A stretch of 64,000 bases of DNA from Eimeria praecox (Eukaryota). The stretch is from the NCBI GenBank assembly GCA_963920595.1, contig OY986950.1, positions 5,084,001 through 5,148,000 of the forward strand, written 5' to 3'. Below are positions 3,001 through 64,000 of the stretch, piece after piece; the stretch's first letter is position 1; every line of letters starts with the position of its first letter. The notes under the pieces are model-generated. The model searched no databases. It worked only from the letters and a program-made list of their open reading frames with translations, and was not told the origin of the DNA. A program made the translations under genes and the position numbers.

Positions 3001-6000
3001 TAATATCTAATTGATTCCTCTGCTGCTGGCGTGTGCTGCAACGCGTTCAAGCCAGCTTATAGGTATCCCGAATATCATGGGTTTGCGTTGCTGTTGATTT
3101 ATCAGTAGGCTTCAGGGTTGTTGCCCATTCAAATTTTTCAGTTCGTCGTACATAGTGGCCACGCTTACCACAGTGGACTTAGGGATTCATGGGTTGGGCA
3201 AATACAGGATGTGCGCGGACGTGGATATACACGATATACATGGTTCAAGATCTTAGCCAAGCATTCGAACGCGTCTCACGCCATGAAATTGCATAAGAAA
3301 CCCTTATGCACCTGTAGTCATTGTGGTTCCGTCCACGTACGAGCATCCTCAATGGAGGGATCAATTTCTTAACAGCTGGTGGCCGCTGTAAGCATGCGAA
3401 TTCCCCGAGGAATTTTAATCTGCAGGCAGTTGAGAATGCCCAGCCAGCGGGTCCATTGCTGCTGCAAGAATACACTAGCTGATCTTTCTATGCGTCGCTG
3501 CAATTTGTGCACCACGGTGCAAGAGATTAAGGGTAGACCACTGTTTCCTTAATCCTCCCAGCACAAAGCGAACGCGCACATCAGGGCTGTCATTTTGCGT
3601 CTGTCGCAGATCAGGAATGGGATTGTTGCTTCTTCACTTGCCGTTAGAAGCGGACACTTGCGAATGGATCGCGTTGGCTAGGCGTACTGGTTTTTTAGTG
3701 AAACTCTTTTTTAAATAGACAAAAGAACAGTTTCCGGGCCTCAATGCATTTCGAGGAGAACCAGCTAGCTCCGAATTCGATGCGCCCCGCGCCTTCCTCG
3801 TATGACATATGTGACGCTCGTGCTTCGCTGTTGTAGTCGTTGGCTTGTAGAGTGTCTTTGCTTCTGTATGTGCACGTTCGCTAGGCGATGAAGGGGCTAT
3901 AACCATTTTGTTGGGAGCAGGGTACCAGGAATAGTGGCTTTCGTTTAAAATCGGTTTGTGCTTCTCGCAGACAGGCACGAAAACGAGGTCATCATGCTGC
4001 ACATTTGAAAAATGAGCTTCACGCTTCAGAGCGTGAGTGCAGTTGCAGCCCTCGAATCGCGTGCGTTATACATCTCCTTGCAGGTTGCATTGTGGCTGGT
4101 GAATAATCCACAGGAGCTCGCCTGCGGTGGCTTCGTGTCCAGTTAGGAAGCCTCTGTTATGGGACATGCGTGTGGAAGAAACCGTCAAGCCATGCATCGA
4201 CGCATACGACCTTCTTTTGCCGGCATCGCCCTGCTGCCGTGTCAACACTGTTGACTGAGTGCTCACGCCGGTTTTCTTGAAAGCAGCACGCACACGCAGG
4301 AGATCGTGCAGGAACGAACATCGTGTGTTTTGCTTTGGGCCTCTCACGGTTTGGCTGCAGATGCCAATGCACACTGCGACGAGGACGTCTGTTTACGCTG
4401 CGCAGTCTGTTGTTTTTGGCAGGCGGTAAATGATGATGCATTCAATCGTGAAGGGACACTAGGATGCAGGGGCTCACTGTCATTGTAGAAGTGCGCAGCG
4501 TGCCTCAGAAAGCTACTGATATTTCCTGTAGACGGCACAGCATATGTTCAGGCACCAGGGCATTACCGCTACGGTCTGTTTGCGCGGTAGTGTGCATAAG
4601 CGAACTTTGATGTTCGTTTAGTTGGCTGTCGGGGCATGCGTTTCACTGGCTGTTGCCTGGTGTACTGGTTGACACCGGTAAAAGCTTGCGTTTTTGTTCT
4701 TGCGATTGGACTCGTGAGCATGCTGTATATCCACGTGCGCTCGACTGCTGGCTAAGTAGTCAGCCTAACCTTTTGCTGCGTTGCGCTGTTGTGTTGCATG
4801 ATGCAGATTTACCTCGCTGTGTCTTCCAAAACCGAAATCCGTTTGCTTTTAGGTTGGCATAGATTGTACGTTCCTGCTGCTTACAGGACCTGACTCGCTT
4901 GACGTATACCTACGGAGGACAGTCTGTAGGAGCTTTTGAAGGAGCTTTGGTCAGGTAGATCTTCTGTGGGGAGTGCCCATTCGCAGTTCAGCTCCACAGT
5001 GACTAACTTCGGATGTGCCTGACCATGTGCTTGACATGCTAGCTGGTTCTGAGTGAGAGTTCAACATTGATTCCCTTTTAGCTTCAGTAAGCATGAACAC
5101 GTTACCTGATGAGATTCGCTGGGTTGGCCCATTGCACCTAGAGTGCGACGCTATAAGGATGAAGTTGAAGGAGCCTCCCTGTTAATTGTACCAGCGCCGC
5201 GCCCTGCTGCTTGCTATGATTATCTTGCAGCTGGCACCAGATGCGTGGAAGGAGGAGCATCTCTATCAAGAGCTTAAACTCCCGCCTCCTGCGCATGCTT
5301 GCATCGGCTTGCACGATTCATTTTTTTGTGCACCGGGGTGGTTGGTGCAGCAAGAAGTGACCTTTGAGTAAAGCTCAAGATTACTTTGACTCTACTTAGG
5401 CTTGCGTCAGTGCTCTGTGTTGGTGGCAACTAAAGCTCTGCTGAATTCATGCCATCGGCTGACACTAATAAGCCGACTCAGTGCCGGGTTTTCATGACGG
5501 CGATGCGCTGATCGGTCAGCTGCGTGATCCGAGGCCAGCAAAGCCAAATGGGTGTGGAACCGAAAGTACTGCGCTGCGTTTGGCGTCGACGCCGACAGAA
5601 GCCCTCTTTTCTCTCTAGTGGCAGATGAGTGTGTGTAGTTACAGCCCTCAAAGCTGCTCGCTGCAGCACCTTATTTCGTTGGGGACCGAAGTACACGAGG
5701 TACAGCAAGTGAGTGAATGGCCACGTTAAACGCGATTTTAGGATGGAACGCCTTCGTCATCTGTTTAGCTGTGCCGGCTTCTCATTCAGCATAGGTAATG
5801 CCATAGGCTGCTGCTATCAGGAATCTCAGTTGGGCGCAGCTGTTGTGTACTGATCATGGATGGTGGTAGGCAATGGACAAGCGAGCAAGTGTATCCGTGC
5901 TGGTTGCCATTTGACACGGGATTATGCAGGACAGCCGCAGCAGAGGCTGAAGAGCCAAATTGCGAATGACGCTCAGTTGTGTCTACGGCCTTGCATCTCC

Positions 6001-8287
6001 CTCTTCTGTGTCTATAGACGAAGATTCCTGGACACGCCGGCATTGCTTTTCGAGCTCTTGCTTGTCTGTGTGCTGCGTATCAATACTATGACGCGCAGAA
6101 AACGCGAAATATCTTAACTCGCAGAAGCGCATGCACTGTGGTGGAGCTGCGCATTTTACAGTGACTGGCCTGGAAGGAACCGCCTAAGTTGTCTTTTCTG
6201 ATGGGCTAAGTTGTCGGGTGCGACAGCCCAGAGGAAGAGATGATTCTTACGGAGAAGTGCATTCGGGTGTACTCAGGCCAAGCAAGCAGTGGTGGCAGCA
6301 TGTCCTGTGGGTGCTGTTTTCCGTTGCGCGCGGGGTCTCAGGCTGTGCGTTAAAGCACCTTGCTGTTGGATTGGCGTTGCATTTGGGTGGTGCTGTCCAA
6401 TAGAACAGTTGACGACCGGCGGGGATATAGCCAGGATTTGAGTTTTGTCGTATGCTGTATGCCGCTGCAGGCACCTCTGCCGCATGGTGCCCCACACGAA
6501 GCGTATTCACGTGCACGCAAGTAAACAGTACCGATCGATTATTCGTAAGCAGCGTTTTCCCATTTGAGAGAAAACGCATGCGCGGGATGTCGCGCTAGGT
6601 GCACTTCTGAAAAAAAGATTTAGATGACGTTTGCAAGGGGAAAGGGAGGATGTCAAGCAGCGAGTACGTATAAGCCCGATGTGTACGGCAATCCATGGGC
6701 GAGGGCGTTTACCGCGGGTAAGGCTTGACTGCCAAGGTGGCGCGGGACAGCGGTGCATGTTAGCAAGAAGCTCGATCGGCGAAGGTAGTACTTCTTGCTC
6801 GCTGTACCAAATTGGAAAATTGGATTTGCTTGAGTTTGTGGGGGTGGACGGACGAGCTACTTACCCCGTGCTGCCAATGCGAGATCTTGTTAGCTAGCAG
6901 GTGTTACGGGTAAAATGATGGTTTCCACACCAGCTTCCCCATTTGCGGATGGGAAGTCGGCGAAGTCCATATAAGCATTCGCCAAGCAACCTAATATCTA
7001 ATTGATTCCTCTGCTGCTGGCGTGTGCTGCAACGCGTTCAAGCCAGCTTATAGGTATCCCGAATATCATGGGTTTGCGTTGCTGTTGATTTATCAGTAGG
7101 CTTCAGGGTTGTTGCCCATTCAAATTTTTCAGTTCGTCGTACATAGTGGCCACGCTTACCACAGTGGACTTAGGGATTCATGGGTTGGGCAAATACAGGA
7201 TGTGCGCGGACGTGGATATACACGATATACATGGTTCAAGATCTTAGCCAAGCATTCGAACGCGTCTCACGCCATGAAATTGCATAAGAAACCCTTATGC
7301 ACCTGTAGTCATTGTGGTTCCGTCCACGTACGAGCATCCTCAATGGAGGGATCAATTTCTTAACAGCTGGTGGCCGCTGTAAGCATGCGAATTCCCCGAG
7401 GAATTTTAATCTGCAGGCAGTTGAGAATGCCCAGCCAGCGGGTCCATTGCTGCTGCAAGAATACACTAGCTGATCTTTCTATGCGTCGCTGCAATTTGTG
7501 CACCACGGTGCAAGAGATTAAGGGTAGACCACTGTTTCCTTAATCCTCCCAGCACAAAGCGAACGCGCACATCAGGGCTGTCATTTTGCGTCTGTCGCAG
7601 ATCAGGAATGGGATTGTTGCTTCTTCACTTGCCGTTAGAAGCGGACACTTGCGAATGGATCGCGTTGGCTAGGCGTACTGGTTTTTTAGTGAAACTCTTT
7701 TTTAAATAGACAAAAGAACAGTTTCCGGGCCTCAATGCATTTCGAGGAGAACCAGCTAGCTCCGAATTCGATGCGCCCCGCGCCTTCCTCGTATGACATA
7801 TGTGACGCTCGTGCTTCGCTGTTGTAGTCGTTGGCTTGTAGAGTGTCTTTGCTTCTGTATGTGCACGTTCGCTAGGCGATGAAGGGGCTATAACCATTTT
7901 GTTGGGAGCAGGGTACCAGGAATAGTGGCTTTCGTTTAAAATCGGTTTGTGCTTCTCGCAGACAGGCACGAAAACGAGGTCATCATGCTGCACATTTGAA
8001 AAATGAGCTTCACGCTTCAGAGCGTGAGTGCAGTTGCAGCCCTCGAATCGCGTGCGTTATACATCTCCTTGCAGGTTGCATTGTGGCTGGTGAATAATCC
8101 ACAGGAGCTCGCCTGCGGTGGCTTCGTGTCCAGTTAGGAAGCCTCTGTTATGGGACATGCGTGTGGAAGAAACCGTCAAGCCATGCATCGACGCATACGA
8201 CCTTCTTTTGCCGGCATCGCCCTGCTGCAGTGTCAACACTGTTGACTGAATGTTCACGCCGGTTTTCTTGAAAGCAACACGTACGCG
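1..8287. repeat. Tandem duplication with a 3991-bp period: two full periods (1-3991, 3992-7982) plus a partial third (7983 to ~8287); may extend left of the window
   Basis: The sequence and the ORF track repeat at exactly +3991. Only about five substitutions were noticed between copies 1 and 2. The third copy is identical to ~8227, diverged to ~8287, then unrelated. Confidence 0.97.
39..8023 (+). CDS. Candidate micro-exons carried by the 3991-bp repeat
   Basis: Copy 1: AGC 39-41 (cag/gtgagt), GCG 432-434 (cag/gtaaat), ATT 872-874 (tag/gtacgt), CAA 1715-1717 (cag/gtgagt), GCT 2351-2353 (cag/gtgcgt), CGA 2670-2672 (cag/gtacgt), GAT 3208-3210 (cag/gtgcgc), 12-nt CTGGTGGCCGCT 3376-3387 (cag/gtaagc). 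Copy 2 (+3991): 4030, 4423, 4863, 5706, 6342, 6661, 7199, 7367-7378. Copy 3: AGC 8021-8023. Reads S-A-I-Q-A-R-D-LVAA per unit and may be incomplete. Confidence 0.55.
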
Positions 8288-11200
8288 TAGTAGAGCTTTC
8301 AACGGACAACAGGCTGTCTCCTCGTAGGTCGATGGAAATGGTGGCATGGCCAGCGCAAAGTTCTCTTCAGTGTCCTGTCGAACAGTAGCAATTGCAAGTG
8401 TTCTTGGCACGACGCGTGGCCCCTGGATGTGGTACTTCAATCATTTCATAGGATTTGGCTGGGGCGTCTGCGTGCCTTTGCATACTTTACATGGTCAGTT
8501 TGATGTGGCACAGACTCAAGTGGTGCACCAGCCTACAGTGATGTATATCTCCACGTAGCCACTAATAGCAGCTTGTGCGTTGTCATTGATGAGGAAGCCA
8601 AAGCCGACGAGCAGGCTTCAGAGGCGCATAGCCACTGTGGAGGGCCAGCTTCTCTTACAATTATTGTGATTGCCACTAGCTCGCAAATTGGAATCATGCA
8701 CCAGGATATCCAAGTAGTTCTACGTTTCGGGCCACCTTTAAAAAAAACCACGTTGATCGTCCTTTGGCCGGCTGTCGAGAAATCTGTTTGATTAGCTGAT
8801 GGGCGCCGGTTATCCTCTATAGCTATCCTTTGCCGTGTGTAGTGGCAGGAAGCGGTTGCACGTGGTGCTTATATCCGGATAACCCGTTTGATAATTACCG
8901 AAAGCAGGCTATGTGTCGCCTTGATAGCCCAATAGGCCACGTAGCCTGGGGACTATGACAGGTGGCTCGGGCACGATTTAGCTCGTTTCTAGCTAGCTGA
9001 GTAATTACAAACCTTCTGAGCCGGGTGGTTGAATTATCGGCACATCGTATGCTTTCTTTTTCAATAAGGCTGTGCGTTTCTATCCCCGGCAATACGTGTA
9101 TGCCTTTAAATGTAAGGGCGGCCCAGGAAAGCGGCGAAAATCATCTACGCCGTTGCTGGCTAACTTTGATGCTGTGCGTCTGGTTGCTTGAAGCGACAAT
9201 GAGCGACTTTAGTATATATAAACTGGCGTGCATGCTTGGTGAGTTGAGCTGAGGCATCTGGAGGACCCAAGCAGGTGGTTTGCTTAACGTGGAACTGAAC
9301 ATCTCGCCATTTGCCTGATTATGCTTGAGGTGCCGATGATCAACTGCGTCAAGCCCATCAAAGAGTGCTAACGTTAACTGCTTCCTGGCCCGTGTCGTAT
9401 TCCAGTGTTGTTCTGCATGCTTGTGCCTCCACCTAAACTAAAGACTGTGGGTCGTTAGCCAAGTTGAACTGAGTTTGATGCTCGTGTGCCTTAAGCCTGA
9501 GCCTACCCTATATTTTCTGCTGCATTCAAATGCTGAAGACGTTTACCGTTTTCCTCCTTCATCTGTATAGCGCGAACTTGCACTATTTCACTAACGCACT
9601 GGCAGCCATTGCGTAAACGAGCGAGTATTCTTGCTGTCGATTTGATTTCGCCATATTGCACGGAGCGCTGACTTCTAGGGGTGCTCCACCAGTGGTTACA
9701 AATGTCAAATTCGCCCGGTTACAACCAGCATGTTGTGGCTCGTTCACGCTTTCCTCCAGTAATGTTCACTGGGCCCAGCAGGCCTTGTGCTTTAAGGTGG
9801 CGTTTTTCCCTGCATCTTTAGATGGATGCTTGCGAATTCTTCATGAATTTGGAAACGGTTCCGTTGCTCGTGAAGCGCGGCGCCAACTACCAGCGTCCGA
9901 ACAACCAGGGAGACGCCCCAGTGGGATACTGGCCCTGCGCGTTATTTTGAGCGGCGTCGTACTCATAATTGTGACTCGTTCAGTGGCAGTTGCATTCTGG
10001 TGAGCCCTGTTCGCTCTGTAATAACTTCGTTAACTCAGGAAGTACGCAACTGCCTTGTTCCTATAACACAAGTCAAACATGGCTAGCCTTGTTGAACACA
10101 CACTGAGGTTGTCGTCTAACGATCGCGTGGTGCTTGTCATGCTCGAGCACTGCCCGTTCGAGATGCAGACAGCGGATTTATCGCTTGTTGGTGCTGCTAC
10201 TGTTTCCGGCTCTGCCAGCCTGATTTGAAGACAAGCGAAAGTACGTGGCCCTCCATCTTTGTATGGTAGCTTGCCTTCCCTGAGAGCGTGATTGCTCAGT
10301 TGTGCACTGAGGTAAGAATGTTTTTGCCACCAGCTTGGCTAAACGATTTTATCGAAGCTGCATTTTCAACAAGCGAAACCGGCGCCGGATATGTTGGGCG
10401 GGTGCTGGTTGACAGCCAGTTAAACTGGAACGCCTTTATCCATTGCAGGAATTGTGTCTGGAGTAGAGGAGCCATACACCCAGTTTAGCTTCCCTTTGCG
10501 TCGCATTTGCATTTATGCGCAATACGGAAAAATTGAAGCTGCATGCGCACGATGGCGTTGCACTTGTTGAACGCCGCTGGTAAGGCCCTCGAATGAAAAT
10601 GGCTACCAGGTTCCCCCTAAGCCAGTTACTGGCTTGGACATGATGGGGCTCCGCACCTGGACACTCACGCGGCTGCAGATTGTTCTGCCCACAACTTTGC
10701 ATTTCGATTTTGCTGTGTTACTAAGATAGAGAGCAAATTCTATGCTATTTCGCAATATAGCGAGTACGACAAGCTTCAACCTGTGCAGGAATGAACTTGC
10801 ATTCAGGCTCAGTCTAGCGATACTGACCCAATAAGAGCTGCTTCACCTTTTTAAGGCCATATTCATGGCTCCCTTTACCCCATCAAAGGCACTGCAGATT
10901 GCAGTAAATTCAAGATTTACTCTATAAGTGCGGAGATCGTCCTGAAACTCAGGGAAGGCTGCCTGTATCTTGAAAGAGCCAGCCTAGTAGGTCTTGGTAC
11001 CTAAAGCATGGCCTTTGGTTAACCTGGGCTTACTGGCAGATGCAAAACCCACTCAAGGGTGCTTCTCTCTAGAGGAGAAAGCCCCAGGGAGCCTTGTTCT
11101 CTGCTACTCGAGTTGCTTGGCTGGTGCTGTACGGAGAAACAGAGGCAAGCTTGCCTAAGCCTGATTCTTTGCTTCCGTTAGCATGCACAGGCTGAGGCCA

Positions 11201-14200
11201 TGGAGTGCTTGGTGAGAACGGTATTTTGGCTGTTGGCTGGGGGGGGGGGCTGCAAATGTGAAGCGAGCTGCTTAACTGCCTTCCGTTGCATATCTAAGAG
11301 GGTATCTTAGGCTAAGCGCGGCGGTGACAACAAGTAAAATGGTGCGAGCCCGTTTGCCTATTACCCAAGAAACGGGCAATCTAGGAGGTACGTGTAGCTC
11401 AAATCTCGAGGCAGACCTACAGCTACGACAGAAAATGCAAGTCCAGGAGCCACTTCTGCTCCTGTTCGAGCTTCACTGTTGCGACATTCCTTACGTGCGC
11501 GTAACGCTCACAGCTTAGCTGCAGGCTGCGGCGCCTGTGTTCCATCGGAGAGTCGTAACAATACCCAGTTTCACGACGTAAGCGTGGGATGCTCTCATTG
11601 ATGAAATCCCGACACTGGCCATCACTGCATAGTCTTATGAAATGACGTCCACAAGCTTCTACAGGCACACCAGAATAGGTAACTGTCTTAACATGGAGCG
11701 AACCTCCACAAGCTGCCTGTCAGGAATGTGAGGTTGTGCCTCTTTTCTCCTTTCCATATTAGCGGTTGTTTCATACTAATTTCGAACTAAGCATCCTCTT
11801 AGCTTGAATGAGGCACCTGCCCCGATGGGTCCATTTATTATATTGTACGGGAAAAGCATGCATGTGAAAAATGCGCTTGCGTTTTGAAGCAGACCGGGAA
11901 CAACCAACCCCACGGCGTGTGGACTACCCCAGGCTGTGCGCATCCAGCTCGTTTTTCTTGTCAGGTGAAGCTAGTGCTGGTGTTCCCAGAAACGCTGGCG
12001 AATGCCACGGGGCTCAGATAACCACCAGCGAAACAATGTTGCGTTAAGTTGGCATGCTGCTTAAAATTAGGCTGGAGCAAGTGGCACTTTCTCGCGTTTG
12101 TCTTGTAGGAATATAAAGTGTGCTCTGTAATAGTTTTAGGTAATCCGATATACCTAAAGTGTTGTTGTTAGTTGTTTCCACAAACACTGCAAACTACCTT
12201 GAGTGTGGGCTACCACGGACACTGCACTCTTGGGGGCACACATTGAACATACTGGAAACATGGCTAGTCAACATGAGGTGGCACAAAAGGGGCAGTCTTG
12301 AAGGTTGCATGTGCTACCAGAGGCTGATTAGTACTTACGTGCTGCTAACGCCTCCACACTTTGCTAGGGTTGAAGCGGTGCGCGCAGTTGCGAATCCCTT
12401 AATGCCAGTGGCCTGTCTAGCAGGCATTAGGTGGTTTTAGATAAGTGCCCTTTTGCGGTTACTTCCATGTTGTGGCTCGGACTGTGCTTCTGGAATAGCT
12501 CTAAAGAAACGTTTCGCGGACCTTGTGTGCTGCCCTACACTCCAACAAAAGAACCCACAGGCCATCCAAGGCTTACTTGGTGTACTAGTGATATGCCGTG
12601 ATGAGCAGCTTGTGAGCTATATTCATTTTGGCTGTGAATGACTCACGGTAGCTAAGCGCAAACGCTGAATGTAAGTGCGGATATACGCTTCTGCATATTC
12701 ACGACAAAGCAGACCCCATGTCTGCGCTGGGCAGCGTCAACCCATCATATGCGGTCCTCGCGTGCTACTTGTTGTTTTGTTCAGGTATATGGGTAAGCAC
12801 ATAATGTAATGCACCCTAACTGGTGAGAAGGGCAGGGGTGCACGAGGAGATGAGAGATGCAAGGCAAACAGTCTGATGGCGGTGCACTCCCTGTGGTGTC
12901 GTAGCACGTTTCGGAAGGTACCATCTTGTGCGAATGCCTTCCCTCCCATGCACCACATTTCCCGAACCGATGCTCCCAACCAAAGGGAACGTGCCATATT
13001 GCTTTTCATCAGCTAGTGCGTTGCTGCCGGATGATGCGCCGACATGTATAAGCAGTGGGAGGCCGTAAGCCTCAGGCTGCAGAGTCCAGCTTATTTGTGC
13101 ATAGTGCAAAAGTAGAGCTCTTTTTCTTAAGGAGTCGTCTAAGAATTCACGGATTGCGTTAAAGCAGATGCTGTCGTACTGGCAGCGTGGCGCTGACGTT
13201 TTTAGGGACTATGTGTCCTAGCAGATGATCCGGCGAGCAACTGCTTGCTTTTGGGGCGGACCCGTGACACTGCTTCGATCCATCCAGAGGCCCCTGATGT
13301 AAATCTATGCAGCAAATTGCACCAAGGTCCGTATATTATACTAGCATATGTGCTGGCCGCACGCGCCCTCTTCCCTCTGGAAATATATGGCTTGTGAAAA
13401 GCTGTGAATTCTAGACGGTGAGTTGGCAATCAGCATGGACTGGCTGGGTTCGTATCACACTGTAACCCTATGCTTTGCAGAATGCAGCTTATGGTTTTGG
13501 CGTCCTTGTCCCTAATGCGAAGTGCGAGCTCCTTTACCACAGTTATTGCAGTTCTATCAGGGCGTCACCAAGCTCATTCGGGTATTCGTAGGCTCCCGAT
13601 TTTAAGGTAGCGTCAAGTCGATTGACGCAGTGTATGTGCGCTTTAACAGCCATTAGCTGTGTATTTTGGTATGGACAAGAGCATGTGTTGCGCCAGAGCA
13701 ACAAATGGCAGTATGATGGGGCGTTGTCTGTGTACGTTCAAAGGTATCTGAATTGGAAAGACAGGCCAGTCCGGCTGCAGCCATCGTAGGCGAAAGGCCA
13801 GTGACACAAGCCGTTGACCTATTTGGCCCTGTAATGAAAAGTGGTGCAGCAAGCTGCCTTTTACTGCTCCAGCTCAGAAAAGCACAGGAATTACTCCGAT
13901 GGCTTGGAAGTCGCAATTCTCGGAGGCTCAAGCTGCCTGCTTATGGATATGAAAAATTGAGGCTGCTGAGTCGGAGGAAAGGCAACGTCTACAGACTGAC
14001 TGAGTGCTGAACGTTATCAGGCATTCATAAAGGCGTTTGGTGGACAGGAAGTAGGCGTAGGAAAGAGTCGGTTATGAAGTGTTAGAAACAGTCAAGAAAT
14101 ATTGCAGTTGGAGTGCCTCATGCGATTTGCAAGCTGGAAGTGTGAGTTCATTTCCGGCGGGAGTGCTTGGTTGGCACTTGATGCTGGAGACATCTGGTGC

Positions 14201-17200
14201 CAAAGTCAGAGCAACAGGCAAAGAAGAGCAATCCATCCGGAAACGGGAAAATAGCAGTTCACTATGATATCGAGCATAACTCTTGGCGTTTCCGCAGCAG
14301 CGTTGCAGACCGCCATGTAGGGTCCCTGCAACTATTAAGAAAGCGCTTTTTGCCTGTGAACTGATCGAAGAGGCGTACCGTAGGCGCGATCCTGCCTGCT
14401 GGTGCCTGTGGAAGAACTCGTCGACGCACCTGTTGTCTATCTGCAGATGCACCTACAGTGAAGTCTTGTGCTCGCCACCAGCGGCACAGGCTGCTGTCCT
14501 TCAGATGCAGATTCTGTCGACGGGTAGCTGCCGCTGAACTATGTGCATTACAAAATGTTGCAGCACATACCCCTCTGGCGGCACTGTTGTGTAAACGGTT
14601 GCCAGGTTGTTTTCGAATCACCCAAGCAGCTTGCTGAAGTGTGGAGAAACACTAGTGATGCTTGTTCAGACTGTGCAATTTCGCAGCAGCTTCCTGGCGT
14701 GTGTGATGAGTGGGGAGCTCAATGGGTCGCTAAGCGTCCGCGCTACAGAACTCGCTGAGAAGTGCACGTCGTGCATATCTCAACGCCGTAGCGCCTAAAT
14801 GGGCAATTTATGGCGTGGCGTCTGGATTAGCATCTGTTCAAAATCCCCGTTGCACAGGCAGTGAGCAGAAGATTTTGCATTCCGTGGCTATATCTGCGGA
14901 TGTGCAACCATTCATCCAGTTTGCAGCTTAGGGCGTATAAAAGCTCTCACAGTTGTGGCTACGATCCCCGACCTCTCATATCTTTACGCTGCATTTCTAC
15001 TGTGGCGCTGCGATCCCCATAAAAGTCAACTGGCTGCTGAGGTCCTCGGTGCAGCCCATCAGCGTGGTAGAGTGCAGTTAGGAAGGGCTTTATTGCTTCT
15101 TAGGACGTCCTGATGCATCTACCCGAAATAGGAAAGTAGGTGTCCACCTCCCGCGCTTCTAACGCGCAATATCATCTCCCGGGGCATCTTTCGTCAGGAA
15201 GTATGCGCTGAATGACATACGGCACGCCAGAGCTTGGGGAACGCCGTCTTCTCCCGGCGTTCAGTGAAATTTGTGTCTGCTGGTTGCAGTGTCAACTATG
15301 GCGCAGCGGGACCAAATTGGCGATACCGCCCGTGCCACAGGAATGATAAGTTGCTGGATGCTATTCAGCATTGCGCCTCGAGCGACTGGCTTTTCTTGAA
15401 GATTGGGCGTTCTTCTATAGAAAGGAAACGAAGGTTCAGATTTGTCCGAGGGCTGCAACTACTTTACTTTCCAATTCGTTTTCGAGGAGTGTAGCATTAG
15501 TATGGATTTTATATCTGGTTTTGATGAGTGTTGGTGTAAAAAGTCGAAAACGTTGTCTAGGATTTGATAATGGAACTTCAGCCGTCGCTCTGCAAGATGG
15601 TGTAGCAAAGCCCTTGCATTATCCTGCCTACGAGACGATGCACAAGAACCTGTGCCTTTTCATGTTTTGAAAAACCAAGCTGGCATGCTTTTGCGGGTTG
15701 CTACTGCCACTGGGATCTCGAGGGATACTGATGGGCTGCTGCTATTAAGAGCGCAAAGGAGGGTCTAGGGCTCGTTGCCATTGCAGCGGTGGATGCATAA
15801 CATGGCCACTTGCACCACTTGACTGTATCGCAAGAAGTGCAGTGCTAATCTGTTTTTTGCTGTATCCCTGTATTATGCACCGGCTGACCTGAGCATGTAG
15901 TTTGCAGGTACGGTGGTACAGCGAGTAAGCCTCTGGTCAAGCGGGTGCTAGCCCTAACTACGTAAAAAGCTTACATGGCGTTTCATTCCCTGCCCAGCAG
16001 CAGTACTTCCTTTGATCGCAGCACTCAAGTTTCATGACGTGACGCAATGTTGCACAGGCAGTAGGCGAACTGTAGCACAGGATATGGAGCAATTCCAGGA
16101 GTACCAGGAGCCGGGCTACTTGAATGCTAAAAAGGCGGTCCACGGCGCACCACATGGCTAGCGTGGAACTTTGTCGCGTAACTGGCAGCAGCGTGAGATA
16201 AGAGCGGCTCAGGGGGAAATAGGCTAGTTGCGCCATCTTGGCTGTTTGTTACGTGCTACAGGAATCATTAGACCGCCTCCTGACGACAGCTTGCACTTTC
16301 CCGTCTTTTATTTACCCCTATGGTCAATGCGTATCGCATGGGACCTTGGATGCCAAAGGACGCCCAAGCACCTGGCCGGAACTCGCGTACAGGATAACAG
16401 ACGGGCCCAGTGTAAGGTAATGCAGCAGCCGCCCTTTCACCTTGGAAGTGGTCGCGGGGATGTATGCGTGCGCAACATGCACGTTTCCACAATTTGCTGA
16501 CTGGCGCATCGGACCCTGGGGTGCGGTAACAGCAGTGACGCCTCGATTGCAGGTCAGGGCAAGGGTTCGCATTAACTGGTGGCGATGAAGTACGGCATGA
16601 CCAAATGGGGTCTTCGTTTTGTACGTGAGCTCTGCTTTGCGGTGCACACAGTCCTGGGGATGCAGCAAGTAAGGTCAAGCAAAGGAGTAGCTTTATTTGT
16701 GGCATCCAGCTCTACGTTTTCTCGCTATGTAATGTGTGTATGGCATGCGCTTTGATGAATGATTATTCCCCACAGCGGCAGAATGCCTGGTATCGTGACC
16801 GACCCCGTTCAGCATGCCATTTGTACAGGAAGTATGGTGCAACTGCTAAATGCTATAGAATAGTGCGAAAGATTAAAAGCAACGTGCTAGGTTGTGCGCT
16901 ATTTAGGGTGCCACCGTATGATAGAGCATTTGAGTCTACTGGTAAGCTTGTTGCGGCAACGCAAATAAGACCTTGTCCAAACTGAGGCAGCTGAGACATA
17001 TGAAACTCAATTCTTTGACAGCCAGATATGGCCGCGCAGGCTCTATGTAGTTGGAGTTTGGCATGCTGTTGCATGTGGGCACTTTTAATGGTAGCTTGAG
17101 TGAGAATAGCAGATTTTGCCTGTACGTGCTAGGCTAGGGCAGGACTGGCAGCACTAGGAATAAATGACCCGCTGCAGCAGCATTAATTGCTGCATTTCTT

Positions 17201-20200
17201 GTTGCTCACGCCTAAGGGTGATCTGGGGTGCAGCTATCACACGCTCACGGAGGTGCAGAAAGTGCGCTCATGGTCAAGGGGCGAGCCGGTTCTCAATATT
17301 GCCTAGAGCCTGATCCCCGCTTTCCGAAATTGGTGTTGCCGCGCTGCCGCGTACACATTTTTAGAACAAGCATGTAGGCAACGGAACTTGTTAAATATCA
17401 TCTCTTGCACAGGCCGTAGGTTTGCGAAGCTGTCTGCTATGGAATGGAGCGTTGCGCAGACATAATATAGATCACTGGCAACGAGGAACTGTTAACGGTG
17501 GCGTCTTGTTGGCTTGCAAGGCGGCGCATCTGGGTTACCTTTTAGGGACTGAAAACTTTGGCTCACATCATAACAGAATGATTGCCCGAGTGGCCTAGTT
17601 GCCGAATAGAAGGGGCTCGTTGTGATGTGCTTCATGACCAATATTCCAAAGGTCGGCGACGCTGTTTCCATGTGGGAGTGAGTAGTGTAAAAACCTGGTG
17701 GAGGAGAGGGATGCGCATGAGGCGACGCTGCACGGCAATGAAGCAGCCAGTCTTGCGGTAACTTTTCATATGCCTTCCTTTAACGGTGCATTGTGCCGTT
17801 TGCCGGCTCCCGTTACCTTCATTGTGTGAAACCATTGAATCTGGGTGCTGACAGTGTCCTATCCAGTCAATTAAATACAATTTCTCTGCTGGAAGGTAAT
17901 TTAGGCGAAACTATACTTGCCGCTGGCACCCACGTAGCCAGCTGGAAGCATTACATCGCAACAGATGATCCATACAGGGTCGCGTCTCACGAACCCATGT
18001 TCTGTCAACAAAGCAAGTGCGTTTTCTGCAAAGCGCGTTCTCTTCGCAATAGGGTAAGCTGGGGCCCCTCGATTCTGTTCCCACAGTGCACTAAAGGAAA
18101 TCTGTGCAATTTCTCCATGGATGCCCGATGGCGAAACAAAGAAACATGCGTAGCAACGAGCGAGAAGTAGAGGTAGCCTGCATGCTCTTCTATACAGTTA
18201 GTAGGTGTAACGTTGGCTGGATGCTAAGCCCAGAGGTATAAAGCGCCTGTGACAATTTCACTCATGCGGGAGTGAGAAGAGGTAGAGTGAGAAACTGTGA
18301 CGGCGGATTCAGTTGACGGCTAAACTCGCTCTGGACTAGTGGCCGGCCAAACCAGGAAAGGCGGTTATCACATTCCCGCAGCTGGTTTGGGGTGTGCTTG
18401 CTCGAATATGCATTGCTTGTCAAAGATTCTGTTTTCTGGGAAAGCTGCGTTTTCAGTATCAGCATGGTGGCATCCCTCTTTTAGCACGCGACAAAGCATT
18501 GGGTCTTCTCTAACGTAGCAGATGGATCCCAAACAACCACAACCACTACAGTACACCGGGTATGATAGCGACGTGCACGCTTGCTCACGAGAAGGCGACG
18601 CAGGCTGTTCAGGAAAGTGCAGTTTTTCTTCTACCGCCCTTATCATTTGCGCTCATTGAAGCGTGGGACACTGTCTTGTTTGCAAACTCCTTAGCATTCA
18701 CGATGCTACGAATCATGAAGAGCTTATTTTATTGGCAACTGTTTCCCCCAAATTAAGTCCTGCAGTCGTGATTCCCCAGCGTCTCATGGAAAAAAGATGG
18801 CTGCTTTGAAGGCTGTATTATTATGAGGCGAAAAAACCTTGTCAGCACTTTCGCTGTGGTTTCTAGCATTACAACTACTCAGCTATGGCTTTTTGAAACG
18901 GCTGCGTCCCATGTGCGGGATATGTAGGACAATCATGCAGTGCATTCCGTTTGCAGACGCCTCGAACTGCTTGCGCAACTATGAGTAAACGGGGGGCCAC
19001 AAGGCATCTTTCCAAACTGCAGGCTGTTCGTTTTGCCTCATGGGTAATCGTGCACTAGGTAACCCTTGTGCATGGCAGGAGTTGCCTTAACCTTTTAGCC
19101 AGCAGCCCGATCCAGTCAATCTACTGAAATGGGCAGAAATCATAGTAGGCTTCCAGCGAACGTGTGCTGGGATCCTTATAGACGTTTCAACGATTTGCGT
19201 CGGCCAAGCTGGGATCTATTGCTTTCTGGCAGTGCAGTCTACATACGTCATAACCCCGCGCGAAAAGCGTACTTTGCCGAAAAATGGCGGCCTGGCTACA
19301 AAGTAATGAGCAAACGCAACTCTTGGCAAGAAGAAAAATGCATACAGGCAGTACGCGTGAACTTGAATTTTGTGCAGTATTGTATTTGCACGAACTTGGG
19401 TTTATTGCAAGTATGGGTTTGAAAGATATCTTTAGCGGTCGAAGTTGTTTGTTTGGCTCTATTTTCATTTTCACCCAGGCCCAGTGCACAAACGTTCAGC
19501 ACAGTGACAGCGAGAGCTTTTTGCCTACCAGACAGTACGGATGCGCTTGCGAGGGAGGTAGAAACAGCTTTTGGGTGTGACACCAAAGCCTTATGGTTCG
19601 TTGACGTCCTGCAAAAATGTGGGAGTGCAGTGAATAGCGTGTAGTCGAACACCTAGCAGCGCTGCTATACCTATACCGGGCTTTTATTCGTATTGTATGC
19701 TGTTAGTGTGCCCTTCGATTGGCAAACGGAGGTGCGGGATCCGACGCTTTGTAAGCAATTGAGCGGGAAGCGTTCGTCGACGGTGTACAGGACATGTTGC
19801 ATCAGGTTGTAGGCTTCATTCCTGAATTAATGTGGTTAAAAACTAAGACTGCAAAATGGTCCTTATTCAAACCCAGAATCGATCACATTCGAGAGCACTC
19901 CGTGCCTGAACCCTAGCGTATAGAGCTTGCATCATAAATGCAGTTAATCTGCCTGCTGAAGCTGCGTTCTTGTAGCTCGCCTTGAGCACAAGCAACAGAA
20001 GCTTTGATTACTCCCCCAATGCCGTCGTCCATCTTCGCAGCCTAGCATGCTGTGCAACAGGAAGTACGCTAAGCGTGCGGACTCTGAGCACAAAGAAGGC
20101 GTCGAAGGTAGCTCCAAAATCAGAAACCGTGTTGTGGGGGTGCATTTATGGGGTACAACCTTGCGTATGCCTACATGAAAACGCGGGATGGAGAGTTGCG

Positions 20201-23200
20201 GCTACATTTCCCACAAGCGCCTTATTCTTAGATTGGTAGTTCACGGCTGTGCCCGCCCTTCATCACGAAGATAGCATAAGGCCCACATGGGTGTGGGTGA
20301 TGAGATGATCAATGATATATTGAGGCAATAAGAAAGACTTTTGCACTAGGCGGTAAGCTGCTTTCCCATGTGACTTGCATACTCAGTCCCTTGAACGCAG
20401 CCAATTGTGCGTCAGAAGTCGGTAACTGACTGTTCGGTTTGAGATCTTCGCGCACAAATGGACTAGTATACTTTCTCTTCGCTCTATACTTCTGGCCCGT
20501 TCCAGCCCACGCTCTTGTTGGGATATCACCCATTTGACTATATTTGGATTTTTTATTGAGAGTAAAAGGTTCTTGAATTTGCGTTTGATGCTGAAGGCAT
20601 ATATTCCGGTACCATGTAACTTCGATGCTTCGTGACTCCTCAGGCTGTACGGTTCACTTCTAAAGTGCATACATCATAAGCTCCGCTTGCAGGCATGCAG
20701 AACCATCGTTAAAACACATGAGCATTCCAGCAACGTTCCGCGCATCGTCTGCTCATTCATCATGCACAAAGGCGGATGGAATATAAGCACAGCAGATATC
20801 GTGGGTTTACCGTGGAACGCTGGTGAACAAGTACAACAAAGTGACAACTGCATTTGCAGTGGACTCCAAAAATACCAGGCAGTACGCTAGCTTCGTAGCG
20901 TGCTCATATGGGGAGTCCCGCGTTAACTGGCAATTACATGGGAGATTTCCCGCAGCCATTTGAAAGGCTTTGAGTGTCTCGGTTTAGTGGTCCGATTACC
21001 GATTTCTTCTGTTCTTGTGCAGATGCTTTGCGCTGGTACAATGCCAGTGAATTATGAATCAGGCAGTAAGCGTGTTTGCACAACAATCGCTAGCGCCGTT
21101 AGGATTTGTGAGCGCTTGAGGCAGGCTACGTTTCGTATGTGTGGCCTGCCTAAGATCGGCTGGAGCATATGGGAACCCTTAATGCCGTGGTGCTAGGCTG
21201 GTAACGCATCAGGCTGTGTGTTTGTACTCCATATGGCACGTGCCAGCACTGCGTCTGCTACCGGCGTGAACAAAGGGGACGCTTCGCAAATATTTTTCAT
21301 TTGTTTTACACTGCGTGCACTACCCCCAAAACAGCCGTCCTACAAAAGGAGTAATTAGCTAATATGGATAAGGCTAGTGTTGGCTACTACCGGGAATATG
21401 GCCCATGGCTGGGTGCCTCGTAAGTAGGAAAAGAGCACATATCGTGTCTCAAAATTGGTCCCATGCATCAGGCAGTATGATTGCTCTCGATCCGATTTCC
21501 ACCCATAAATTGTGGCCTTAACCGCGTGCCATGCGCCAAGCACAGCTAGTTGCGCTCCATCATACTTTCCCGCTCAGTGCTGGGTAAGCAGTAAAACGAT
21601 TTCACAATCACCGATAGGCACCTACAGGCTTGTTGGTATGAACGTGCCTTTGCGAAAGTGGGTTGAGTCTGCTTCGCGCTGATGTGTACGATGAACAAGA
21701 AGCCAGCGTGCTTGAAGGGAATATGAGAATCCTGCCCATCAGGCTGTACGTTGGAAAGAGCTTAGTGCTGTTGATTTCATTTGAATAGTTCGGGGATCCC
21801 ACTGTCCCAGGCTGGGTTAACGTGATTGCGCAGACAAATTTGGCAGTGGCCATGCATTGGAGAAGGGCCTTCTGCACTTCCTAGACGAGCCATCCGTCAA
21901 AACCGCAATGGAGCAACCCAACGATAAGGCATATGCAGTCTTCTAGATGGGTGATCATTGATTAGAGAGTGCGTTTAGTCTGAATTCAAGCGATGGAATT
22001 TTTCGTGCTCGCTTCAACCAGACCGTTTGTTTGGGTGCTCGTGTGCCACGGAGGTAATGCAGATGTGCACGAAGCTTGCCTACTTGAAGCTTGTGCGCAT
22101 TTGATTCTCCAGGCAGTGCGTTCAGCGCGTTTTCTGGAAGCTAAACGGATGATTGTATTCGACAGCTAAAATGATGTATATTCCCTGCTTGCTTACTTCT
22201 CAGTGTTGGAATTTCTTGTTCATGCCAGACGTAATGTCGAATTCTCAGCTAGGTATCGCTGACGCGGATCATACTCAAGCCAGTACTCACGGTTGCAAAA
22301 TAGGTGACGTCTTTAATTTATACCTCTTGCCTAAGCGTTGAACACGGATGGAAGCCTGGAGACGTTGTAGAGACCAAGCATCGGTGGCGGCTCTCCAAAA
22401 GTGTACTTTGTCAGGAAGTACGCAACATATTTGATGTGTTAAAGCGCCGCTTCGGAACATGTGTACTCTCAAAGATAATTCTAAAACCAAGCGTTGCTGT
22501 CCTTGCTAGCAGCCGTGACGTTTTGGAAATTATCTGTATCACGCACCGTAGGCGTTCGTCCTCTTCTTTGATGGCTTCCTCAGGCTGCTGGACAGCTTTT
22601 CGGGGGCGTTGTGTATGGTACCCAATTTAGCCTTGATGGGTAAGGAGCAGAAGTGAGCACCAAAGAATAAGCTCACCTTGAATCAGGAAGTACGCTTGCT
22701 CTCGAGGCTGCTTGAACGAGAACGAGCTTGGAGAAGTGAATCTTCAAGAGCGGATGCGTGAGACGGTTTCCCAACTTGAGCTAAATGGGCCGAACCAGGT
22801 TTTGCAGCGCGAAGGAATCGCTGGTTCAGAACTGAGCGCAATCTACTTGCGTGTTGATCGCTTACCTGTGCATTCATCCTTTAGCAAATCACGCGGATGG
22901 GGACAGGAGAGCCGTGATAGGCAGATGGCAGGCAAGTGAATTGTGCACCTTTCGACGCTTTGTGAATCAGGCAGTAAGCCCGACACTGTTTCCGGCACGG
23001 AGCTAACGAAATGCTGAGCAGGTTCAGTTATAGATAATCATCACATGCTGTACTGCAGATGCGGCTTTTCTACCAAATCACATTGCGCAACTGGGGAAGT
23101 GTAGCGGGCGGGTCAAAACAGGCCACTCACTTAAGCGGTCCAGAAATGGCGTGCATCAGGCTGTAAGCTTTCGAGCCTGTAAACGTCGACAAAGGGAGCC

Positions 23201-26200
23201 GCGTGTTGAGGGTGCAAAACAAGCTCAAAAAGTATTGGAGCGGGGCAAAAACGGCTGAATGCCTTCTAGGGAAGACAGCAAAAAAGGCGTGCACTGATTC
23301 TGTAAATAAGAAGTATCTGGGGATTTAGAACTGCTCGTCTACGGCTGATCATGCTTCCTCTACGGTAAGACTGATGTGATTTAAAAGCGTGTGGCAACCA
23401 AGCGTGTACCTTGTCAGTGATAAAATGCCATACATTAGAAAGTAAGCCCGTTATCTGTGCTTAGCACACATGCAGTGTATTGAAAGAAGCATGGAGTTCG
23501 ACGGATAGCCAGGAGGCATTTGACGGTGTTAGGCTGTGCTTTGCACTCAAGATAGCGACCGGTAGAGTGCCACGTGAAGATTAGGAGTAACCTTTACCAC
23601 CACCGCCATACACTGTCCTCATGCAGCTAGATTCAAAATGTGGGCAACAACAGGCGTTTAAAACGATGCTGAATGCCAGATAATAAGAAATGTTGCGATA
23701 GGAACCATCCATGTTTCAGAGAGTAAGCCTTAGCGTCCAGCAGCTTCCCCAATGCACCAAGGATATCAGGGGTATCTGGAGACTTGAAAGCACTCCACAA
23801 AACACAGTTTGGCAACGCATCATCCTCCATCATTGTTCTTTTACCAAAAATTTATCGCGCTTCGCAGGCATGCCGATTCAGCAGCCAACTGCAGACTAAT
23901 TGAATGAAATGCAGGTACCCGGCGTCTGAATACATTTTCAGTGTGGTGAGTAGGGCTTGTGGGTTTTATCAGGCTTATTCGTGCAAAATGTAGTATGCAT
24001 CTCACTACTCATTCAAAAGGCAGTAAGCTTGTTCTCTGTTTGTTATGTACATGCTGTACTTTAGTGAATGCCAGGAGGAAAACACTTCCTAATGGATGGT
24101 ATGAGTTGGTCATGCATGATGGAACGGTGCTAGAGTTATTGTAGAGTACGTCTTTTGCCGAAATTGCTTATGCGTTTGCAACTGCACTGCGACTGCTCCT
24201 TGTTGCTATGCTCCAGCCAGTGCGCTATATTTGCAAACAACCTGCTGATCCAGGCTAGTGGCATGCTCCGCGCATTTTTGTAGAAGCGGGGCACTCTTAC
24301 ATTGGGAAGGATGACACGAAGGACTTGCGTTTGTGACCAGCTGGCGAATATTCTTACAGTCATGCACTGGACACTTGTTATCCTAGGTACTGCAGACTGT
24401 GGCTTAACTGCTTTGAACGTGAGCCTCCCGAATCGTCTCCTGGGGGTTTATGATGGAGCAGATAATTTAGAATGCTCGGGTGTGGCGCGCATAGGTGAAC
24501 AAAAGCACGTTGCGGCGTGTTTGATGAACCTGCAAGGCTTTGCGCATGCTTGCCGCTCTTCGTTGCCGCACCAGAAGATGTTTTAGAAGACAAGAGTGCA
24601 GCCTAGGCAGGTCTGAAAAGGTGGGGCTTGACGATAGAGGAAATTTCACCACGCGATTGCCATGCATCACGGCGTGGGCCTAATACCAACAATGTAAGCA
24701 GTGACTGTCACGCATTCAAGGGACCATGGTGCATTCGGCGGGCACGCAGAAACGATCGTATGCGCGCGCCCCCGGCAGCGTGAATATAACGGGACAGGAA
24801 GTGAGCGCGACCTTCACAGTAGAGCACTAGAGCAGAGCGTGTTGGCTTGCTGAGCGCCCAATGAGGCTATTGACAATCTGCCGGTCAGACGCACCAGAAA
24901 ACTGCTTTTGCCATTATTGGTTTTTTTTTAATTTAGGACTTTCCTTGTGAATACGTCTGGTGTTCAAATCCTCATGGCGCCTAGGTTGGAAATAGGAGCG
25001 GCCCACAGTATACTGCTTAGTGCATGAAGAGCCTGCTTGCACAGATCCAAAATTGGAGTGCCAGAGGAAAGCTGTCCCTCCTGGAATTTACGTGGCATGC
25101 GTTGCCAGGCTTGAGGAGGCAGAGGAGGAACGAAACGAACGCTGCTTCTTAAGAGGTATGCGTGCATTTACCAGCACGTGGAGCGCAAATGAATTTGAAA
25201 ACATGGTACGAGATTGCCAAAGAAATGCCCCTGCTTTTGCTGCATGCTTGGGCGCAAGCTTGGTTTATGACGAGTGCTAGGCCACGTTCGGATGATTTCC
25301 ACGTTGCTTCTAACGGCTAGCATTGGCATTCGGCGGCTGCCATGCATCAGGGTGTCATGCTTCGAGCTACGGGAACAAAGAACAGCTCGACTGCTGCTAA
25401 AGAATTGGGTTTATTTCGATAGATTTGGGAGTCCTTAGGGCTGAACTAGTAACTTTGCGACGTGTACCAGAGTCTAAAAAAACTGCCTAACCAACATAAA
25501 AATACCAATCATGAAGCTAATTTTCTGCAACTCTTGGCTTCTCCGCCTGAGTCGTGCCAGGAGGATGTAGGAAAAGAACAAGCTGCCCGAACGCACTGTG
25601 CCAGAACAGAAATGTCATGCAACGCGCACTGCGATCTGTCTCTACATCGCTACTACAAGATGCACATTTTGCTGGCTTGCGGCAATTTAGAATTTCGTTT
25701 TATTCTTACGAGCGCTGCTGGTTTTGGGGCACGCATGGGCGTTTGAGGGCTTAGGTGGTACCCTCATTATTGGGCCTACAACTATAGAGTACGGTTAAAG
25801 GCCAGACTTGGCATTGTAACCTTTCAACGCAGAACACGATGGGCTGCGCAAAACAACTGAGAGGAAGGTGTGCGCTTGGTGGATAGAGGTCCCTCAACCT
25901 CGTTGGCGCTCCATTTGCTAGTTTTGCTCTCCAGGGAAAATTGTGGCATGCTGACACGAAGATTTATCTCCGCTTCACTGAGCTGATTTGGACTAAAATT
26001 CAACATGGAGGCAATGTGCCATCACGGCTGCATCGCGTGGCAGGCGGTACGCTTGAACCGCAGTAAACGCAAGCGTTTTCTTACCATTTTACGCTTTGAA
26101 GAGTGGCACATTCATGTGAAGAGCTAGATTTTAGGGTTGGTCTGCCTGCTCAAGTGAACCAAGTGAACTTGTGACGGCACGCAGAGAAACTATTGTTGTG

Positions 26201-63294: not shown

Positions 63295-64000
63295 GTACGC
63301 TGAGTGTTGTTGGCCGCCACAGCAGTAAAAGGACTGGCGTTATAAGACGCCGTGCTTCAGGCACACGTGAAAGTGCTGAATGAAGGAGGTTGAAGCTGGT
63401 GGTTGAGGGCGCCTGTACCTGGGAGGGCATGCGCAGACGCGTGTCAAACGCACGGCTCTGGCAGCCTTCATCGAAGCTGGAGTCCTCGAGGCGTGTGCGG
63501 TTGTTAACATGGCAGTGGCAAAAGTATATCCTACAGTGGATGGCCGGTAGTAGAGCTGTTTTGCCTGGGTCTGGCTACGGGCGATGTTCGATATGGCCTT
63601 TTGTATCAGCTGAATGGATGCTTGGTACGTTATTAATTGGTTGTAAGCATGACGCCATGCTGGTGTTGCAGGTGCGGTTTGTCTACCTACGCTGGTGCAT
63701 AAGCGTGGAATGATCTGCGCGTGCTAACGCGCTTTGTGCCGAACAACAATGCATAATTGCACCGCGTTGCGCTCTGGGAAGCGCATATCCGATAGGTGCG
63801 TAAAGCGTTTTGAATAGCAGATGGCGAACGCAAGGAAACGATCAACAGTGAAGGTGATTTCTCTGCGGCGTGTTGAATGCACGGGATACTGTAGTGGGGC
63901 GCGGAAGGGCGAAACCGATATATTGGAGAGAGCAGGCCCCCTTGTGGGACGGAGGGTGTGGAGCGTGAACGAGCGAACTGACGATATTTTCACACGCTGC

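Follow-up and report, generated by a model that had tools for sequence, protein, structure and literature searches.

The window analysed here is a stretch of 64,000 nucleotides (nt) from the Eimeria praecox assembly GCA_963920595.1 (contig OY986950.1, positions 5,084,001 to 5,148,000), with a guanine–cytosine content of 50% and GCATGC as its most frequent hexamer. Along its whole length, the + strand carries single triplets set between sequences that resemble a splice acceptor and a splice donor. A site rule based on the flanks only, with the triplet left free (YAG-NNN-GTRNG), identified 131 sites on the + strand and 6 on the − strand, and the other 18 spacer lengths gave 13–39 sites. About 110 sites are in excess over the background, spread along the 64 kb of the + strand, and every 4-kb bin contains 3–16 rule sites. 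None of the 131 triplets is a stop codon, nor is any of the 119 that remain when near-identical copies are removed. When the triplets were joined, the stops per frame across the window numbered 0, 6 and 12, frame 0 alone being stop-free. As predicted from the DNA, these units probably represent one-codon exons that follow one another in a single spliceosomal gene of > 64 kb.

The array consists of four parts that differ in site density and repeat structure (Table 1). Spacing is most regular in the dense core, where 63% of the intervals fell between 180 and 335 nt, compared with 22% at random (maximum of 47% in 10000 trials), with some gaps of approximately 1 kb; at 9–18 kb, the spacing is irregular (62–810 nt). 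The tandem duplication at the upstream end likely belongs to the same transcription unit, which would enter the window from upstream. In the diverged repeats at the downstream end, four site families recur in which AG and GT are kept and the triplet varies.

Table 1. Features of the codon-sized exon array in the window, a segment shared with a separate contig, and example arrays from metagenomes (positions in the window or, for L-numbered loci, in the locus)
Feature	Position	Strand	Description
Upstream tandem duplication	39..8023	+	Unit 3991 nt, 99.7% identical; 7 rule sites per unit (39, 872, 932, 1715, 2351, 2670, 3208 and copies); 0 on −
Sparse part of array	8572..18200	+	Approximately 20 candidate one-codon exons; median spacing 548 nt; acceptors lean towards TG(C/T)ACAG; residues mainly Glu, Ala, Leu, Arg
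Rule exon starts, sparse part	8572, 10039, 10761, 11385, 11933, 12609, 13013, 13415, 14048, 14858, 15198, 15922, 16058, 16666, 16829, 16891, 17259, 17413, 18198	+	Candidates with AAG acceptor: 9069, 18014
Hand-picked exon starts	9069, 10039, 10761, 11385, 11933, 13013, 14048, 14858, 15198, 15922, 16058, 16666, 16829, 16891, 17259, 17413, 18014, 18198	+	
Dense core	19348..38472	+	63 rule sites (3 on −, 6.3 expected); median spacing 271 nt; 27 Ala, 10 Glu, 6 Arg, 0 stops
Shared 32 nt around exon 21472	21454..21485	+	Also in a separate 411-nt contig (2 differences); contig flanks do not fit the window
Diverged tandem repeats	38974..64000	+	Units of about 1.2, 2.4, 3.5 and 4.0 kb; 66–99% alike; 34 rule sites; Arg/Ser-rich (9 + 9 of 34)
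Example metagenome arrays	L012:2309-7241, L023:2897-7465, L024:52-3824, L013:3806-6384		One-codon exons, 50–80 nt fungal-type introns

In the 9–18 kb range, an earlier sequence-only reading had picked 18 triplets by their splice flanks and joined them into a peptide. All 18 are present on the + strand as AG-NNN-GT and reproduce that peptide when joined, and 16 of them were recovered automatically from the flanks alone; the two missed (9069 and 18014) have AAG acceptors, and two sites were added (12609 and 13415). At 9060–18210, the rule gave 18 sites on the + strand and 1 on the − strand, whereas the other 30 spacer lengths gave a mean of 2.8 and a maximum of 9 (Poisson p 1e-9). A stricter rule retained 14 sites, whereas 200 dinucleotide shuffles yielded 2.1 on average and 7 at most. 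Because the flank rule was learned from the same data, a held-out test was made with a matrix trained solely on 19.3–38.6 kb; 12 candidates with a 3-nt spacer scored > 0 in the 9–18 kb range, compared with 0–4 for the other 24 lengths and 0–4 on the − strand. The idea that these are chance matches picked by eye draws on the 64 unfiltered AG-N3-GT sites in the range, which include 4 stops, and on the approximately 3 of 18 rule sites expected by chance, but it is refuted by the Poisson test, the held-out matrix, the shuffles and the strand control, and retains practically no probability.

Automated extraction yielded no stop codons among the 18 rule sites, stops appearing only in the unfiltered set, and the concern of the sequence-only reading that picking by eye had favoured familiar codons does not explain the result. 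The absence of stops in 18 sites is not significant alone (P 0.41); together with the share of chance sites and the 4 stops among the unfiltered ones, it means that the exact peptide of this range is uncertain by several residues. The same reading had noted longer introns here, as the median spacings confirm (Table 1), and had allowed for missed exons; on this point, the excess of AG-N3-GT sites (64 vs. 39.2 for other spacer lengths) leaves room for just a few more exons with GT donors. GC and GA donors showed no excess. A spacer of 9 nt gave 9 sites, the highest of the 30 other lengths, yet it is unconvincing as an exon size.

In statistical tests, the triplets behave like codons. At YAG-N3-GT sites with an RNG donor, 16 of 18 encoded Ala, Glu, Lys, Arg, Gln, Leu or Met (hereafter, helix formers) with no stops, whereas of the 16 sites without an RNG donor, 1 encoded a helix former, 2 a stop, 2 Pro, 2 Gly and 1 Cys. 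Donor quality thus predicts the residue class (Fisher p 2e-6). Permuting the codon columns, which preserves any position-wise splice preference, gave 10.0 helix formers in the 9–18 kb range against the 16 seen (p 0.001). Over 8.3–38.6 kb, the 82 sites comprised 31 Ala (using all four codons), 15 Glu and 8 Arg (CGA, AGA and CGC), with no Gly, Cys or stop. Helix formers occupied 69 of these sites versus 48.0 after column permutation (none of 20000 permutations reached 69), and Gly, Pro and stop together occupied 2 versus 13.2. Just 3 of the 82 triplets end in AG, so they are not accounted for by a donor preference within the exon. The phase-0 translation proposed in the sequence-only reading is statistically supported by the donor-class test, the column permutation and the single stop-free frame.

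Real splice signals could also flank triplets that are never translated, either through recursive splicing of one giant intron that leaves a 3-nt remnant or because they are exons of a transcript that does not code for protein. Any splice-related element could show such a strand bias and such regular spacing, repeat copies differ more in the triplet than in its flanks, and the coding density would be only 0.6%. The lack of stops in 131 triplets, the amino-acid structure beyond column composition and the link between donor and residue nevertheless need selection on translation, and we regard this alternative as unlikely. Recursive splice sites are AG/GT junctions of zero length, with no spacer. 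Such junctions numbered 14 here, within the background, and the excess was found at a spacer of 3 nt only.

The flanks of the triplets are maintained. In the core, the acceptor consensus is (A)TGCATCAG and the donor consensus is GTA(C/A)GCT, whereas the interiors of the core introns are unrelated to each other (26.0% vs. 25.2% identity). The shared 20-nt core is thus not simply a product of recent descent but is being maintained, and a recent satellite origin of the core was rejected on the same ground. A retention value of 1.0 obtained for AG/GT arises partly by construction; in the fair test, which compares repeat copies < 92% alike with decoys, AG and GT were both kept in 89 of 109 alignments versus 369 of 582 decoys (the pairs are not independent). 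Conservation between repeat copies was 0.99/0.94 for AG, 0.91/0.90 for GT and 0.63–0.68 for the triplet, with a background of 0.81. Triplet changes between copies comprised 49 non-synonymous and 10 synonymous substitutions and none to a stop, representing few independent events.

Two conserved half-sites with a fixed 3-nt spacer between them might instead constitute an element acting at the DNA level, such as protein-binding sites placed at regular intervals, or be what is left of an old satellite or mobile element whose 3-nt spacer is variable. The lack of a branch point and pyrimidine tract would suit such an element, as would the TGCAT-type words that are common in the window. However, the letters that do not vary are precisely YAG, GT and the G at +5, the two halves do not covary, the triplets are stop-free and protein-like, and this grammar is also seen behind NACHT exons, where the introns are of the textbook fungal type (see below), all of which render this explanation very unlikely. 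A hairpin or palindrome between the flanks was rejected, as the best of 182 column pairs reached a z of only 2.3.

Additional signals near the acceptors were limited. TGC lies within 10 nt of the AG at 23 of 63 core sites versus a 20% background, and shows no enrichment in the 9–18 kb range or the repeats. A search for branch-point and enhancer k-mers gave nothing above multiple-testing noise. The YTRAY motif is depleted, not merely absent, 6–40 nt upstream of the core acceptors (2/63 vs. 15% background), and the A inside TGCATCAG might be the branch point itself.

A search of sequencing runs listed 3 that contain this DNA, in 2 studies, with no RNA run among them. Three sequencing runs (X1–X3), of which X1 may be the source of the window, aligned to 9000–28900 with even cover and 5 joints, none of which had GT..AG ends. 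These runs behave as DNA and have no bearing on expression. Loose ends occur at 21454 in X1, X2 and X3, and similar ones were found at 10759, 23034 and 23693. The one at 21454 marks the start of the 32 nt shared with a separate 411-nt contig (X1 record 2; Table 1), a pattern compatible with a paralogous array at another genomic location. The window differs from all three runs by single bases at 9094, 9098, 9786 and 26795, none of which lies in a predicted exon or in its AG or GT.

The array may once have been coding and now be decaying, with the 9–18 kb range partly dead or mostly skipped. Lower flank scores, irregular spacing and the lack of helical periodicity in that range, as well as the gaps in the core, point in this direction. 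In contrast, the 18 rule sites of the range are stop-free, have canonical donors and keep their residue class. Moreover, a contig from elsewhere matches from the AG of site 10761 onward, where run X2 has a loose end (10759), which is consistent with a conserved site. Decay is therefore quite unlikely.

The claim that the joined triplets resemble a coiled coil was not borne out. In the 9–18 kb range, no periodicity of 3.4–3.8 residues (p 0.27–0.87) and no heptad signal were detected, and large hydrophobic residues made up only 18%; a coiled coil is not supported for this range. Large hydrophobics considered alone gave no heptad signal in any region at 8.5–64 kb (p 0.22–0.57). In the core, four of the 7 exon sets showed a 3.6-residue periodicity that includes Ala at p < 0.05 in the windowed apolar test (0.003 at best), and the other three gave p 0.06–0.55. 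This periodicity is suggestive of an amphipathic helix but is not robust. These tests made use of helix and hydropathy scales. The product of the 9–18 kb range is better named a helix-prone, Ala/Glu/Arg-rich stretch.

The absence of helical periodicity at 9–18 kb and the dependence of the core periodicity on the exon set weigh against a translated array of one-codon exons, as do several other points. This interpretation is a prediction from genomic DNA, and the donor rule and the set of helix formers were chosen with the data already seen. The usual signals of the 3′ intron end are missing: YTRAY precedes 11 of 130 sites versus a 16% background, and the pyrimidine fraction before sites is 0.51. 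In the repeats, the lower conservation of triplets than of intron flanks also fits a neutral spacer, and in one site family, 3 of the 7 copies carry GTCTGC as the donor. The window yielded neither a start or stop nor a large exon or domain; 14 long open reading frames (ORFs) chosen from 169 gave no Pfam matches for larger exons or domains, and an Atlas search with 2 window ORFs gave no informative match. Among the 120 listed of 802 database matches to the upstream exon of a fungal array, none contained a spliced array tail. The domains that would name the protein would lie beyond the window ends.

Several published systems resemble this layout in part. NACHT–ankyrin genes of Tuber contain tens of alternatively spliced codon-sized exons (Iotti et al. 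2012, as cited in PMC4986451, PMC3689799, PMC10197012 and PMC13449251). The window array shares with these nank-type NLR genes the predicted runs of 3-nt, one-codon exons that preserve the frame on skipping. It differs in the number of exons, with approximately 110 predicted over > 64 kb compared with tens. Alternative splicing is reported for Tuber, whereas the window array is a genomic prediction, and the Tuber genes carry NACHT and ankyrin domains, whereas any large exon of the window gene would lie outside the window. The micro-exon genes (MEGs) of flatworms (Schistosoma and tapeworms) have 10–20 exons, mostly of 15 bp (6–81), and encode secreted proteins (PMC10526429); their introns span 0.1–5 kb, and they show tandem duplication and rapid non-synonymous change (PMC10526429; PMC4350168). 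An operational definition of MEGs demands at least 7 exons, at least half of them < 70 nt and divisible by 3, in runs of at least 4 micro-exons (bioRxiv 10.1101/2020.04.08.031872), and the predicted array falls within it, with 131 rule sites in runs of > 15 at 150–300 nt spacing. Many consecutive frame-preserving tiny exons and tandem duplication are common to both; unlike in MEGs, the exons detected in the window are nearly all 3 nt, and they are five to ten times more numerous.

Exons of 3 nt are known to be spliced in fungi and in an alveolate: Coprinopsis cinerea has 27 of them in 26 genes (PMC12230235), and Amphidinium carterae has isolated 3-nt microexons (PMC12584245). These cases involve approximately one such exon per gene, whereas the whole region is built of them in the window. 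Toxoplasma introns are 50.8% AT with lengths near 470–580 nt and weak branch points (PMC2483917); therefore, the window introns are within the range for an intron-rich protist. We found no paper on a one-codon exon array in apicomplexans or algae, most subscription journals and supplements being outside the coverage, and the layout was found in print only for Tuber.

A three-site pattern scan of metagenomes matched 77 loci (L001–L077), comprising 57 diverse arrays (39 clusters, 55–82 nt period), 8 low-diversity or other-period repeats and 12 loci without an array; the last two groups were excluded from triplet counts. The 1688 triplets of the 57 arrays contained 4 stops, whereas the two alternative frames contained 29 and 238. 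As introns, the spacers of these arrays are of the textbook fungal type (YTRAY in 978/1674, pyrimidine fraction of 0.69). Pfam scans of 16 flanking ORFs matched NACHT above the curated cut-off in L012, L016, L052 and L060 and NPHP3_N in one more, with no match in the other 11, and the named relatives of the L012 exon belong to Agaricomycetes (Jaapia, Piloderma, Sphaerobolus, Serpula and Mycena). The window array shares with these loci the YAG-NNN-GTRNG grammar, confinement to one strand, the near absence of stops and growth by duplication of an intron plus a codon. In contrast, the metagenome arrays have 9–66 units and introns of 50–80 nt that are often near-identical and carry CTRAY and a pyrimidine tract, whereas the window shows neither a CTRAY-type branch point nor such a tract, with spacings of 271–548 nt. 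No DNA similarity was found between the metagenome loci and the window. The metagenome arrays show that the architecture recurs, and they are not homologues of the window array. Metagenomes contain 39 distinct arrays, several of which immediately follow mushroom-type NACHT exons, suggesting a wider spread of the truffle NLR mechanism.

Other arrays sit behind ORFs that by eye resemble GTPase or ubiquitin-like domains, with no Pfam match. The motif I-x-x-W-R, spelled over separate one-codon exons, ends 9 of 58 joined arrays that otherwise differ (L001, L008, L010, L034, L046, L048, L058, L067 and L069). Six loci (L005, L018, L026, L032, L053 and L064) are low-diversity repeats that follow the AG-NNN-GT grammar with periods of 18–93 nt (Glu-rich with a 46-nt period or Ala/Val with an 18-nt period, for instance); these are satellites or very small intron arrays.

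The window has additional features of its own. At 35700–38600, the spacing becomes irregular and the residues shift from Ala/Glu-rich to Ser/Arg-rich, and this segment could be a boundary between two genes; two protein-looking ORFs at 37914–38186 and 38141–38458 had no Pfam match. Near-identical duplications at 1–8294 (3991 nt, 99.7%) and 39127–46236 (4036-nt offset, 99.2%) copy whole sets of codon exons, from which the array, as assembled, seems to be still growing. In the repeat copies at 45000–64000, other islands are nearly unchanged (near 48655, 47188, 47480 and 47568), several with AG or GT words, and may be regulatory elements or exons of a different size. The + strand shows a steady skew of G over C and T over A that climbs to 0.2 in the 3′ direction; a single long transcribed strand would be expected to show this. 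Rfam gave no matches in the window, and the sole result of Tandem Repeats Finder was one 24-nt duplet.

If the triplets are one-codon exons, the + strand would be read as one long transcription unit whose spliced message encodes a helix-prone Ala/Glu/Arg/Lys stretch (8.5–38.5 kb) followed by a Ser/Arg-rich repeat stretch (39–64 kb). Each intron of 250–900 nt would be excised between a strong GTRNG donor and a YAG acceptor; in the core, a TGCAT element just upstream of the AG may assist instead of a pyrimidine tract. Growth may have proceeded through tandem duplication of intron-plus-codon blocks, the recent ones still visible at 1–8 kb and 39–64 kb and the older ones having lost interior similarity. 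Because every exon would be one phase-0 codon, skipping, loss or duplication of an exon would never shift the frame. By analogy with truffle NLRs, a recognition or surface protein could use the encoded stretch as a variable helical region whose diversity arises from exon skipping and rapid change of codons; regarding the most likely role, such a region and a constant structural rod appear about equally probable. The array is set apart from known cases by its approximately 110 predicted exons, unrelated introns of 250–900 nt and lack of a branch point or pyrimidine tract. It is possible, and we propose it only tentatively, that this > 64-kb unit of a non-fungal eukaryote, with > 100 one-residue exons, a dedicated TGCATCAG-type acceptor and paralogous arrays elsewhere, generates a huge helical repertoire through combinatorial skipping.

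If spliced as predicted, the array would represent a limiting case of gene fragmentation, with > 100 splicing events for approximately 110 residues. Its exons would be below the size that ordinary exon definition can handle, and the customary signals at the 3′ ends of introns would be missing. The array would provide a natural test of how the spliceosome handles and orders consecutive 3-nt exons. Such genes escape gene finders and read mappers, and their proteins are therefore probably missing from databases.

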